DNA from: Escherichia coli O157:H7
GTDB lineage: Bacteria; Pseudomonadota; Gammaproteobacteria; Enterobacterales; Enterobacteriaceae
Reading direction: 5' to 3' (one strand)
Assembly: GCF_013167455.1 (NCBI RefSeq)
Contig: NZ_CP038328.1
Length of the DNA stretch: 64,000 bases
The position numbers were made by a program. Within the stretch, counting starts at the first letter, position 1; each line of letters starts with the position of its first letter. This document shows, piece after piece, positions 1 through 6,000 of this stretch.

Positions 1-3000
1 TTAATTATGATTTTTTCGAATATTTTATAGGCAAGTGTACGGCATAACTCTCGTCCATTTTTACTGGTTAAGTCAATAGCATAAAAATCACTGAATGAAT
101 TTACACCTTTACTCTTCAAAGTTTTCAATGATACCAAAGCTCTTCGTAATTCCTTATCTAATAGTCTTATTTTCTCTGCTATAGCGGTAACTTCAGGCGC
201 GACAGACAATGCAACGATTAAATTATTAATTTTCATCTGAAGCTCAATAATTTTTAACTCTAAAGTTTCATTAGCATCTTTCTTGTTTTCAACTGGTTGA
301 ATTTTGCTACAATTAAAAAGCAATTCATTAATGATATTATAATCAACCAAATCTCTCTTTATTGATGGCCTGTCACATCGATGTAATCTTCTCATCGGAC
401 AAACATAATAGCCATGCAAACTTCCAGATACCGCATGAACAATCATGGTATTACCACAAGCCTCACACTTCATAACTGTTCGAAGTAGATTTATTAGCAT
501 AGGATTCTTGCTACTATTGCTAATACCAAAAGGTGCCAACCGAATTTCCTGTACAGCGTAAAACAAATCATCTGATATGACTCTGGGATAATAGCCAGCG
601 ATTTCACTTATCCCTTTCCCTCTTGCACGATATGAAGGTACGCATATACCTATCAGAGCTTTATTCGCTAATAATTTTTCAATTACAGAAGGCCCCCATG
701 CACTTTCTTTTCCTGAGAAATTCTTTACAGCATGATCATTTAAATACTTGGCTATTGCATTCAATGAGCGCCTTTCCATCCTGAGTTTAAAAATTAGCTC
801 AATAGTTTTCACCCTGTCGGGGTCTGGAACAAAAGCCGTTCTTTTGTCATCTAAGGAGAGCCATCTCGGACAAGACGCCGTCATAATCGTACCTGATTCC
901 AGTGCATCCTGCCGTTTTTTCTTCCATGATAATTTAACCCGACTTGACTTTATCTCGCTTTCTTCATTTGCCCTTTGTGCTATAAGTATGGCTTTTATTA
1001 ATGAATATGGCTCATTCAAAGAGTCAATATTATAGACTGTATTGTCGCAAAGAGTTATAACATCAATACCGTGATTCAAAATCAATTTCAGACGTTCAAT
1101 CGCTTCACCGACTTTTTCTCTTGAAAGTCTGTCCAGACTTTCAACTAACAATGTAGTTCCTGGCAATATATAACCATGCTCTATAGCATCTAAAAATTCC
1201 GAAAAAGCTCCTGATTGTGCATGCTTTCCTTTGAATGCACTTAATCCTAAATCTTCATATGTTATGGTATCAAGATAATAATCACTATTTACCTTTAACC
1301 ATTCAGCAATAAGTCTTCTCTGTCGGTTTAATGAGTCGCCAGACATCTGACCTGGTGATGAAAATCGCATATATGCTATGGCTTTTTTCATGGTGACACC
1401 TGCTAACTTATGCTTTTATAAACCTTAGTGGTGAGATATAATTTTTGTTTAATTTTTATTTAAAAAGACAATTACGATCACACTATCTTGAATATACAAC
1501 AATAATCGTATTGCAATTTGCTTACGCAATAATCTTGAAGGCACAAAAGAATACACAAAAACTAAAAACATTAACAAAAGCGGCCCATGTAAAGATATGA
1601 ACCGCCATATTGCAGTCTTTTAAAAGAAATTATTTTTAATGTGGTGTGCTTCGTGACAATAAATTAATAACCAACACACCGGCACAAATCAACATCATGC
1701 CTATAACGGCTGGCAGGTCCAGCCGTTGGCCGAAAAACCCCCATGATAGTAAGCTAATCAGGACAATACCGACTCCTGACCAGATAGCATAAGCAATCCC
1801 TGTAGGAATATAAGCCAGCGTCTGAGCTAATAACCAGAATGATGCACAATAACAAATAATTGTACCAACAGATGGCCATAACCGTGTAAAACCTTCTGAA
1901 AACTTCATTAAGGTTGTACCAATGACCTCTGCAAGTATTGCACCACCAAGATAAATATAAGGGTTCATAACATATTCTTTCCTGTTCAAACTGGAGAGAA
2001 TTGTACTACAGTTTGAACTCAACTCACCTGTTTCATCATTGTGTACCCATTGATGTTCTTTTATATACCCTCAATACCCGTTTCATCGCGGCACTCTGGC
2101 GACACTCCTTAAAAATCAGATTCGTGCTCACCTTTCCTTCCCGTTCTTCTCTGGTAGCGAACCGGTAATACACCGTTCGCCAGACCTTACCATCAACGAC
2201 CAGGATTCCTGCCCGCGCCATTTTAGCCGCAGCCTGATTTATGCTGGTTACGGTTGCACCTGTTACCGCGGCAACGTCCTGTGCACAGAAGCTCTTATGC
2301 GTCCCCAGGTAATGAATAATTGCCTCTTTGCCCGTCATACACTTGCTCCTTTCAGTCCGAACTTAGCTTTAATTTCTGCGATCTTCGCCAGAGCCTGTGC
2401 ACGATTTAGAGGTCTACCGCCCATAACAGGAAGTTGTTTTACTGGTTCAGGTATCGTCTCACCACGGTTAATTCGCGCTGTCATACAGGTCAGTTCATCG
2501 GCAGCCTTGCGCCGTAATTCCGCGTCAGTCAGCGCATTGGCCCGCATGTTCTGGTACAAGTTGGTAACCAACCAGTAATGCGCGTTCGATTTCCACGGAT
2601 AAGACTCTGCATCCGGATACAGGCCACGCTTCCGGCAATACTCGTAAACCATATCAACCAGCTCGCTGACGTTTGGCAGTCCGGCGATAACGGATGCTTC
2701 TTCCCGGCACCATGCAACAAACTGCCCGGGTGATGGCAGAAATGGTCGATTCTGCCGACGGGCTACGCGCATTCCTGCGTTAACCTGTTCCATTGTGGTG
2801 ATCCCGTTTTCCCGGAAAGCCAGAACCCACTGGCGGCGGATTTCGTTCAGTTCGTTCTGGTCACGGTTAGCCAGACTCGCCGGGAAAGTTGCCAGTAACT
2901 GGCTGAACACACCGTTGATGATCTGCGCTACCTGCTGTACCTGCGGCTTTTCGTCGTACTGTTCCGGCATGTTGTTGGCGATCCGACGCATCTGCTCACG

Positions 3001-6000
3001 GTCAAAGTTAACCATCTGTGCGGCGATGTTTTTCATAAATCCACCCCGTAAATCCAGTCAGTGTTTGTCAGGTCGAGTTTTGGTTTGCTGGCTATCATGC
3101 CTGCCTGTTGCTTGTTACGGTTGATTTCGAGCTGGGTCCACTTGTCGCGGAGTTTGGCCGGACTTAGCACGTTACCGGACCAGAAGTTGTCCTGGCATGC
3201 CCAGCGGAACAGCACGCACATGTCGCGGTGGTTACGTCCGTCACGTTCACGCATCAGGCGGATATCGTTAGCCCACCCTGCAAAATTCGGTTTTCTGGCT
3301 GATGGCGCGATGGTCTTCACCATGTCAAACATCCACTCTGCGGCGGTCAGGTCTTCTGCTGTCCCCCACTTGCTGCCGCTCTGAATTGCAGCATCCGGTT
3401 TCACCACAGGAAGATCGTTTTCTGGTTGGTCAGAGGATTCGCCAGAATTCTCGGACGAAAAAGGTTTTATATTGTCTTTTGTTAGTTTGTCTTTTGTGTT
3501 TACCTGATTCGGGTAAACGCCTTTACCTGATTTGGGTAAACTTTTTTTACCTGATTCAGGTAAATTTACCTCTTTCAGGTAAACTTTATTTTTCTTACCT
3601 GATTCGGGTAATGTTGACCATTCACTGACCACATTATTAATGCCGGTATTCCGCCCGCTCTGAATAAAAATCCCACGCTTTACCAGAACACTTTTTGCAG
3701 CAGAACACTTGTGCGGCAATATCCCGGTTAATTCGGAAAGTTGCTCGTTGCTAACCCAATCCAGTTTTTTATTAAAGCCATATGTTTTGCGCATGACAGC
3801 CAGAAAGACCAGAAGCTGGTGAAAAATTGATAAATTCAATACTGCATTTCTCAGCATTAAATTTATCTCTATGACCAGTCAAGAGATGTACCTGCCATGA
3901 GCTTAATATCATGTCAGATATATCGGTCACAAACTCCCTCAGCAGCTAAGAGGAGGACAAATGTCTCGACTAATCACTTTACGGGACTGGGCTAAAGAAG
4001 AATTTGGGGACTTAGCACCAAGTGAGCGAGTTCTGAAAAAATACGCGCAAGGGAAAATGATGGCCCCACCCGCTATAAAAGTTGGTCGCTACTGGATGAT
4101 TGACCGAAATTCCCGTTTTGTAGGAACGCTTGCAGAACCGCAACTCCCAATAAACGCAAACCCAAAACTCCAACGGATAATCGCTGATGGCTGCTAGCCC
4201 CCGATCTCACAAAATCTCTATACCCAATTTATATTGCAAATTAGATAAGCGAACCGGAAAGGTATATTGGCAATACAAACATCCACTATCCGGTCGTTTT
4301 CATAGCTTAGGAACTGATGAGAATGAAGCAAAACAAGTTGCTACTGAAGCAAATACCATTATTGCTGAACAACGTACCCGACAAATATTAAGCGTCAATG
4401 AGCGTCTGGAAAGAATGAAAGGCAGGCGCTCAGACATTACGGTGACAGAATGGCTTGATAAATATAATTCTATCCAGGAGGACAGGCTGCAACATAATGA
4501 ACTAAGACCCAACTCCTATCGGCAAAAAGGCAAACCCATCCGTCTTTTCCGTGAGCATTGTGGAATGCAACACCTCAAGGATATTACCGCACTTGATATT
4601 GCCGAAATAATTGATGCTGTAAAGGCTGAAGGTCATAACAGGATGGCGCAAGTCGTGAGAATGGTGTTGATCGACGTCTTCAAAGAAGCACAACACGCAG
4701 GACATGTTCCGCCAGGATTTAACCCAGCGCAGGCAACAAAACAACCGCGAAATCGAGTAAACCGTCAAAGATTATCACTGCCCGAATGGCAGGCAATATT
4801 TGACAGCGTAAGCAGACGGCAGCCCTATTTAAAATGCGGGATGCTACTTGCTCTTGTCACTGGACAACGTTTAAGCGATATCTGCAATTTGAAATTCTCT
4901 GATATCTGGGACGACATGTTGCACATTACTCAGGAAAAAACCGGTTCAAAACTTGCTATTCCGCTTAACCTGAAATGCGATGCTCTGAATATTACCCTTC
5001 GTGAAGTTATATCTCAGTGCAGGGATGCTGTTGTTAGTAAATATCTGGTCCATTACCGTCACACTACCTCTCAAGCAAACAGAGGAGACCAGGTGTCTGC
5101 AAATACTCTTACAACGGCTTTTAAAAAGGCCAGGGAAAAATGTGGCATAAAATGGGAGCAAGGAACTGCGCCCACATTTCATGAGCAGCGATCTCTGTCA
5201 GAACGGTTATATCGGGAACAGGGTCTGGATACGCAAAAGTTGTTAGGTCATAAATCCAGAAAAATGACCGACCGATACAATGATGATCGTGGTAAAGACT
5301 GGATTATCGTAGATATCAAAACAGCATAGAAAATAGCCAGTTTTGGGGAAGGGTTTTGGGGAAAGTTTTGGGGAAGATTTTAAATCATCATAAAACAACG
5401 GGCGTGTTATACGCCCGTTTCAATATTTAACACATGTAGTGATTACATATTCTTGATGATCGCGTCACCAAACTCTGAACATTTCAGCAGTTTAGCGCCT
5501 TCCATCAGACGTTCGAAGTCATAGGTTACGGTCTTGGCATTGATTGCGCCTTCCATACCTTTAACAATCAGGTCAGCCGCTTCAGTCCAACCCATATGGC
5601 GTAACATCATCTCAGCAGAGAGAATAATAGAACCTGGGTTAACTTTGTCCTGACCGGCATATTTCGGCGCAGTACCGTGGGTGGCTTCAAACAGGGCGCA
5701 TTCGTCACCGATGTTTGCGCCAGGGGCGATACCGATACCGCCAACCTGCGCTGCCAGGGCGTCAGAAATGTAGTCACCGTTCAGGTTCATACAGGCGATA
5801 ACATCATATTCAGCCGGACGCAGCAGGATCTGTTGCAGGAATGCATCAGCAATCACGTCTTTAATGACGATCTCTTTGCCGGTGTTCGGGTTTTTAACTT
5901 TCAGCCACGGGCCGCCGTCGATCAGTTCACCGCCAAACTCTTCACGCGCCAGCTCGTAGCCCCAGTCTTTAAACGCGCCTTCGGTGAACTTCATGATGTT

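Follow-up and report, generated by a model that had tools for sequence, protein, structure and literature searches.

In lambdoid phages, int and xis are transcribed from pL, with an additional transcription of int from the cII-dependent promoter pI, and O, P, ren, nin and Q are transcribed from pR, the late genes being dependent on Q. The lambda origin needs both the binding of O and transcription across the origin, and the C-terminal half of lambda O is the part of the protein that contacts P. The element analyzed here, prophage Sp8 of Escherichia coli O157:H7, belongs to this type of phage and has lost a large part of that circuitry. It was studied in a stretch of 64,000 nucleotides (nt) from an O157:H7 chromosome (contig NZ_CP038328.1), referred to as the window. 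Positions 1-5601 of the window are the int-proximal end of Sp8: positions 1-12000 are 100% identical to the reverse strand of the Sakai chromosome (NC_002695.2, 1611679-1623678), as well as to many other O157:H7 chromosomes, and the Sakai feature annotated as 'prophage Sp8; lambda-like phage' (1618292-1662679) reaches window position 5387. The Sakai annotation of Sp8 is said to come from Hayashi 2001. We take the EDL933 equivalent of Sp8 to be CP-933X; a literature search pairing both names returned nothing.

Sp8 is already largely documented. Asadulghani et al. 2009 described it as a prophage without repressor, antirepressor and general recombination functions, with CI and Cro absent (their Table 1) and all its morphogenesis genes conserved; they predicted it to be excisable, and found no circularization, replication or packaging (their Table 2; PMC2669165). 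A polymerase chain reaction assay of excision, suggested in a prediction made earlier from the sequence of the window (hereafter, the original prediction), is therein already published, and circular Sp8 was not detected (PMC2669165). Likewise, Shaaban et al. 2016 counted Sp8 with the prophages that are conserved in O157 strains and that they term 'fixed' (PMC5359411). What the present analysis adds is the base-exact position of a deletion junction, the truncation of O, the absence of attR together with a 14.5-kb chromosomal loss, and two parallel deletions in relatives. At the level of single bases, this accounts for the failure of Sp8 to excise or replicate, although its int and xis are intact and its late genes complete.

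Sp8 is a defective ('grounded') prophage, which has lost the functions for induction, excision and replication and is inherited vertically. The reading that we favor, with a probability of about 0.9, is that it descends from a complete lambdoid phage (4A7 / phage-21-integrase type) inserted in icd, that a single illegitimate deletion of ~7.1 kb took place after integration, and that the resulting Sp8 became fixed in O157:H7. The evidence comes, in the first place, from a comparison of the window with 50,697 phage records. Homology to intact O genes ends at position 3821, which is also the position where homology of the xis-int side to phage-21-type modules begins, and none of the 50,697 records covers at least 80% of positions 3033-4197, the interval that spans the junction. 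Both flanks are found in a single genome, in equal order and orientation, in the isolated phages 4A7, 1W, 3W, Perceval and Lambda_4C10. In 4A7 (NC_049946.1, Bievrevirus), a first BLAST block containing ybcK-ylcJ-emrE-ren-P-O pairs window positions -82 to 3821 with positions 1-3915 of the 4A7 locus at 96.5% identity, and a second one containing xis, int, the arm sites and the phage-borne icd segment (icd') pairs 3821 to 5601 with 11001-12781 at 99.1% identity. The two blocks are collinear in both genomes, and the 7,085 bp of the 4A7 locus lying between them (3916-11000) are absent from the window, in agreement with the original prediction, which had proposed a deletion joining xis-int to a 5'-truncated O gene and the loss of the entire immunity and early-control region. 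The corresponding gap is 7,264 bp in Perceval, and all five phages keep 7.1-7.3 kb between the flanks, comprising the full O gene, the genes from cII to exo and the small early-left genes.

The order of genes in 4A7 allows a precise inventory of the loss. Reading along the locus, ybcK, a small open reading frame (ORF), the emrE homolog, ren, P and O are followed by cII, cro, cI and two cargo genes, then by kil, gam, bet, exo and six small genes, the last of which is DUF4222, and finally by xis, int and icd'. The missing segment therefore holds 15 complete genes (cII, cro, cI, kil, gam, bet, exo and eight small ones), O codons 1-77 and the cI-cro intergenic region. As no N gene is annotated in the deleted interval of 4A7, and no convincing ORF was found in its 7240-7716 gap, a loss of N is not claimed. 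At the junction itself, the three-way alignment reveals a single shared G, with no repeat or att-like sequence at the 4A7 endpoints beyond it. On one side this G ends the stop codon of DUF4222; on the other it belongs to O codon 77/78. A microhomology of one base is the signature of illegitimate recombination and not that of a site-specific event.

It could be argued that the compact xis/O arrangement is natural to a functional phage or phage satellite, and that nothing was deleted. Indeed, no damage is seen in int, xis, P, ren or the iterons, and both the Prokaryotic Genome Annotation Pipeline (PGAP) and the Sakai annotation label the O-like gene (hereafter, O') as an ordinary replication protein and not as a pseudogene. 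We consider this explanation extremely improbable, because no phage record spans the junction to the extent given above, the closest isolated phages carry 7.1-7.3 kb between identical flanks, O' begins inside a conserved domain, Sp8 has a full late region, unlike a satellite, and the prophage does not circularize, replicate or package (PMC2669165). A complete phage with the same junction, which the original prediction had named as the observation that would reduce the compaction to a misreading, was looked for in the same records; complete phages have ~7.1 kb between the flanks and do not show this junction.

The junction is real and clonal. Of 5,426 complete E. coli genomes, 295 contain a match to a 64-nt probe spanning it, and in 294 of these the identity is at least 99%. 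Among 60 sampled records carrying the junction, every serotyped one is O157 and almost all are O157:H7, some names being given without serotype; they include Sakai-like strains, EDL933, EC4115 and DEC4E. Other genomes match the junction region on one side alone, having either a full-length O or DUF4222 located ahead of xis. Since an identical 64-nt junction is present in 295 independently assembled genomes, it is no assembly artefact; nothing was found in favor of an error of assembly or of reading, the chance of which we regard as negligible.

A different objection concerns the mechanism, as the deletion could have been made by a site-specific recombinase, either YbcK or Int acting at secondary sites, and so represent a programmed or recurrent rearrangement. 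YbcK has the Resolvase, Recombinase and Zn_ribbon_recom domains of Pfam, the architecture of a large serine recombinase, and this predicted enzyme is encoded only 2.4 kb from the junction. Moreover, losses of the early region recur, in Sp8, in the TUM3755 group and in the K-12 prophage DLP12. The TUM3755 deletion affects the same phage type, also at icd, and leaves a lambda-type exo' fused to what remains of O, its final 78 codons (TUM3755 locus 4541-5431); 23 genomes carry this junction, and they are diverse both in serotype (O157:H16, O2:H16) and in source (poultry, dog and human isolates). In DLP12, a comparison that the original prediction had asked for, an independent parallel deletion joins exoD' to peaD', entering P at about codon 131, which corresponds to window position 2646 (DLP12 locus 3099-3688). 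The endpoints are thus DUF4222-stop/O codon 78 in Sp8, exo'/last 78 O codons in TUM3755 and exoD'/P ~codon 131 in DLP12; no endpoint recurs on either side, an argument against fixed recombination sites. In addition, the 4A7 endpoints have one G in common and no recognizable repeat or att-like sequence, and a repeat search within 7 kb around ybcK recovered the iterons and pairs at chance level, with no long inverted or direct repeats. Nothing in the repeat pattern near ybcK marks an invertible or excisable segment. Taken together, these data make a recombinase-made deletion very improbable, and illegitimate recombination after integration remains our preferred explanation.

The consequences of the deletion for the O gene were analyzed by aligning O' with the O proteins of 4A7 and lambda. 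The N-terminus of O', noted as unrelated in the original prediction, consists of 12 residues translated from the antisense strand of what was the spacer between DUF4222 and xis. They replace annotated O codons 1-77 of 4A7, equivalent to lambda O residues 1-47; the difference between 77 and 47 residues reflects that the 4A7 O annotation begins 30 codons upstream of the lambda-like start. Intact O proteins match the Phage_rep_O profile over positions 1-95 of 95 (116.4 bits for 4A7 O and 123 bits for lambda O), and O' matches positions 28-95 with 69.6 bits. O' has therefore lost 27 of the 95 profile positions, including the conserved VADLDDGY...LLEA stretch, and, as the first conserved part of the origin-binding domain is gone, it probably cannot bind the origin. 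A sequence search of solved structures with intact O gave no match, so that no homolog was found in the PDB. The C-terminal half of O', on the other hand, is nearly identical to lambda O. The iterons were kept, as originally predicted: the five copies are the same as in intact 4A7, one base being different in the spacer before the third copy, and lambda has four iterons at the equivalent position. P and ren are likewise as intact as they had appeared, with 231 of 233 and 99 of 100 residues identical to their 4A7 counterparts.

The divergent starts of O' (3857) and xis (3961) are separated by 103 nt, in line with the ~100 bp of the original prediction. A scan of positions 1300-5700 found no sigma-70-like promoter upstream of O' (minus strand) or of xis (plus strand), and no good Shine-Dalgarno site precedes the new ATG of O'. 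The spacer also contains an AT-rich hairpin of 16 pairs (3829-3867, minus strand) followed by a T-rich run, which overlaps the new O' start codon and is already present in the DUF4222-xis spacer of intact phages.

It is conceivable that the O'-iteron-P-ren block persists as a selected anti-phage module, in which the P-binding C-terminus of O', iterons titrating incoming O, and superinfection exclusion would act together. Such a role would be in keeping with an O' C-terminal half that is almost lambda O, an intact P and the retained iterons. Furthermore, the three independent deletions all keep ren-emrE-ybcK, the amount of O'/P shrinking from Sp8 to DLP12. On the map of lambda, oop and its promoter are located at the cII/O boundary, i.e., inside the segment deleted here. 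Plasmids that bear a portion of the lambda replication region have been reported to exclude replicators of the lambda type, but this exclusion needs a transcribed oop together with iterons on a multicopy plasmid (PMC3349717). Moreover, upstream of O' there is neither a promoter-like site nor a good ribosome-binding site, DLP12 is devoid of O and iterons, so that the commonly retained part is not the origin, and O157:H7 is a young clone in which retention needs no selection. We therefore find an anti-phage module highly unlikely. A broader version of this idea, according to which the recurrent retention reflects selection for a domesticated module and not neutral decay (e.g., the O' C-terminal domain, P and iterons acting against the replication of superinfecting lambdoid phages), fares slightly better and is nonetheless unlikely. 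What the three lineages share is int-xis at one flank of the deletion and ren-emrE-ylcJ-ybcK at the opposite flank, with O and P retained to differing extents. The lambda 'inhibition phenotype' was also considered as a role of the retained iterons and judged unlikely, as it needs oop, deleted according to the standard lambda map.

The host-side end of this part of Sp8 concerns attachment. The phage-21-type icd module is complete, with phage-21-like Int and Xis, three YYTTCCCCAAAA-type arm sites and the phage-borne last 53 codons of icd. Int is identical to that of phage 21 at 375 of 380 residues and to that of 4A7 at 378 of 380, and Xis is identical to both at 78 of 78. The arm repeats (TTTTGGGGAA) are also identical in 4A7 and phage 21. 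Phage homology stops at 5601; the 212-nt segment 5390-5601 is therefore attL, and the boundary of the element lies there and not at 5340, where the original prediction had put it. Within this segment the window differs at 2 positions from 4A7 and at 6 from the unoccupied site of O55:H7, differences that fit the way phage 21 and e14 usually insert, the phage supplying a replacement 3' end for icd. The resulting icd gene, a host 5' part continued by a phage-type 3' end, looks functional.

Sp8 has attL and no attR. The empty icd site of O55:H7 strain CB9615, which shows only that icd occupation is not common to that strain, is followed by iraM, ycgX, bluR, bluF, ycgZ-ymgA-ariR, ymgC, pdeG, ymgF, an autotransporter pseudogene, ymgD, ymgG, ymgI, ymgJ, ypjA and minE; an Sp8-like prophage has been reported in another O55:H7 strain, 122262. 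At the far end of Sakai Sp8, homology to CB9615 restarts 2.5 kb inside ypjA, directly after a copy of the insertion sequence (IS) IS629. In this way, 14,477 bp of chromosome (Sakai ~1662700-1664780 versus CB9615 locus 3904-18380) are absent in Sakai, from iraM through bluR/bluF, ycgZ-ymgA-ariR and pdeG to the 5' 2.5 kb of ypjA. Neither icdC, the second copy of the icd 3' end, nor a second att arm common to phages 21 and 4A7 was found in 28 kb of the Sakai Sp8 far end, and each of two O157 genomes sampled whole has a single icd-3' copy. The loss of 14.5 kb (iraM, bluR, bluF, ycgZ-ymgA-ariR, pdeG and most of ypjA) may outweigh the prophage deletion for the physiology of O157:H7.

These observations suggest how Sp8 may have become grounded. 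Judging from lambda, the removal of pL, pR and cII, the activator of pI, would leave both the int-xis and the O'-P-ren-nin-Q strands undriven. Q would then not be made, and the intact late genes would stay silent; this silence would in turn allow a repressor-less prophage with a complete lysis and morphogenesis set to be tolerated stably. The origin would no longer be activated by transcription, besides the probable inability of O' to bind it, and without attR site-specific excision would be impossible even with Int and Xis supplied in trans. The truncated O and the absent attR would thus explain the published negative excision result, and the whole published phenotype (no circularization, replication or packaging) fits the proposed picture. 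From the list of what makes a functional lambdoid prophage, Sp8 retains Int/Xis, the iterons with P, and the late genes, and is without an attL+attR pair, the immunity region with cII, and a full-length O.

Several points weigh against this interpretation. The loss of function of O' is something we infer from the domain truncation alone, and Asadulghani et al. scored Sp8 O and P as 'apparently functional' and its replication as '+' (PMC2669165). Transcriptional silence is similarly deduced, and read-through from icd on the O'-P-Q strand, or weak internal promoters, could give some expression. The absence of attR is direct for the Sakai far end only, to which the single-copy counts in two O157 genomes are added, and the far end in the window strain itself falls outside the window. 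Finally, the O157:H7 strain PV15-279 has two icd-3' copies. The second copy in PV15-279 could belong to a second phage-21-type element or be a retained attR. Sakai Sp8 and the element in the window are the same. The truncated O and absent attR described here differ from the published entries of replication '+' and predicted excisability, and imply small corrections of both in the description of the O157 prophage pool. Beyond such bookkeeping the overall gain is little, the deletion being real but ordinary.

The features of this end of Sp8 are collected in Table 1.

Table 1. Features at the int-proximal end of Sp8, with positions in the window.
Feature	Position	Strand	Evidence or remark
ybcK, large serine recombinase	1-1391	-	Sakai ECs_1615; Pfam; start codon checked
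ylcJ-like small ORF, between ybcK and emrE	1449-1577	-	92% nucleotide identity to K-12 ylcJ
emrE (small multidrug resistance transporter), intact	1636-1968	-	Pfam Multi_Drug_Res, E 2e-35 (SMR family)
ren, intact	2036-2338	-	Sakai: phage exclusion protein
P (helicase loader), intact	2335-3036	-	Pfam Phage_lambda_P 1-162/162, E 1e-61
O-like ORF (O')	3033-3857	-	Pfam Phage_rep_O, partial
O-derived part of O'	3033-3821	-	last 262 codons of O plus stop
ori iterons, five copies of a 17-nt palindromic unit (TTACCTGATTCGGGTAA-like)	3499-3620		starts 3500, 3523, 3547, 3566, 3595
deletion junction	3821	.	single shared G microhomology (three-way alignment)
new 12-codon N-terminus of O', MLRNAVLNLSIF	3822-3857	-	antisense strand of the DUF4222-xis spacer
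leftover spacer upstream of xis	3822-3960		between DUF4222 stop and xis in intact phages
xis, intact	3961-4197	+	Pfam Exc
int, phage-21-type tyrosine integrase, intact	4187-5329	+	Pfam Arm-DNA-bind_1 and Phage_integrase
three arm-type repeats of the att site, TTTTGGGGAA	5341-5375	+	attP subsites P1-P3 in the phage 21 record
icd 3' end (last 53 codons) and terminator (5397-5419), attL region	5390-5601	-	212-nt segment shared by phage and host
icd	5443-6693	-	complete 416-codon ORF; host 5' part and phage-type 3' end

The gene order of the window matches that of Sakai (ECs_1609 int, 1610 xis, 1611 O', 1612 P, 1613 ren, 1614 emrE and 1615 the recombinase), and to the right of Sp8 it continues with icd, rluE, nudJ, mnmA, hflD, purB and phoPQ. 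The window holds just a 5.4-5.6 kb end piece of Sp8, whose total length is 44-47 kb. According to the Sakai annotation, the nin, Q, lysis, terminase, head, tail and tail-fiber genes lie past the window start, and the set of Q, lysis, packaging, head and tail genes is complete at the annotation level. The element is accordingly not a small remnant, which corrects the original prediction. Nor are emrE and ybcK special cargo, as had also been proposed, since both are standard in this lineage and are found at the equivalent place in DLP12 as well as in the isolated phages 4A7 and PhiR34_1. The ylcJ-like ORF has an annotated counterpart in 4A7 (gp55) and in PhiR34_1, and EmrE is identical to its 4A7 homolog at 110 of 110 residues. 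With regard to ybcK, the first 463 of its 508 codons are in the window, the C-terminal end being located beyond the window start, and a literature search found no functional assignment for it. In O157:H7 strain F7386 a copy of IS1203/IS629 is inserted in ybcK. Because this copy interrupts it, ybcK is dispensable, at least in the F7386 background.

Other observations concern the remainder of the window. Within positions 12000-30000 (the region of Sp7, roxA, pepT and pot) the window is ~4.25 kb shorter than Sakai, as its position 30000 aligns to Sakai 1589428 where 1593679 would be expected. The strain of the window is therefore distinct from Sakai, and over 12 kb its best match was strain FRIK1989. 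The sole Rfam match at gathering level in the whole window is a sar RNA (66.7 bits, 42100-42166, plus strand), which by offset falls where the antirepressor gene (ECs_1557 equivalent) of an Sp6-like prophage begins, the expected spot for a P22-type immI antisense RNA.

Compared with the described systems, the 4A7-type isolated phages are the closest to Sp8 across the part contained in the window, and their b region is unlike that of Sp8. 4A7 carries there, beside attP, a complete sitABCD operon for an iron/manganese transporter together with an IS (4A7 locus 13703-17152). The likeness to phage 21 (Jouyvirus) extends over Int (375/380), Xis (78/78), the three arm repeats, the terminator, the icd' segment and the integration site in icd. 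Unlike Sp8, phage 21 is a complete phage, and it has another O N-terminal and iteron specificity, its DNA homology to the O gene of the window being restricted to the 3' 467 nt. The K-12 element e14 shares with Sp8 the attachment in the 3' end of icd, leaving behind the duplicated 3' fragment icdC; it is otherwise unrelated, with a gene content of lit, pinE and mcrA, an int ~3.5 kb away from its junction with icd, and the two att ends still in place.

DLP12 has had a fate similar to that of Sp8. The two have in common ren-emrE-ylcJ-ybcK, nin, the lysis genes, nohD and the ompT cargo of the b region, at 93-99.5% nucleotide identity, and ompT, present in the b regions of both, appears to travel with this phage lineage. 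In DLP12, too, the immunity and early region is deleted, with int-xis and ren-emrE-ybcK kept. DLP12 differs from Sp8 in that O and the iterons are gone, its deletion being an independent event with other endpoints, in having another integrase and another site (argU), with no BLAST homology to the int-xis region of Sp8, and in a late region that is largely deleted and bears IS3 and IS5 insertions. The pattern of the three deletions, in Sp8, the TUM3755 group and DLP12, fits the well-known fixation of prophages by loss of the induction machinery, and the recurrence of such losses among relatives adds an example to this well-established pattern of lambdoid prophage fixation.

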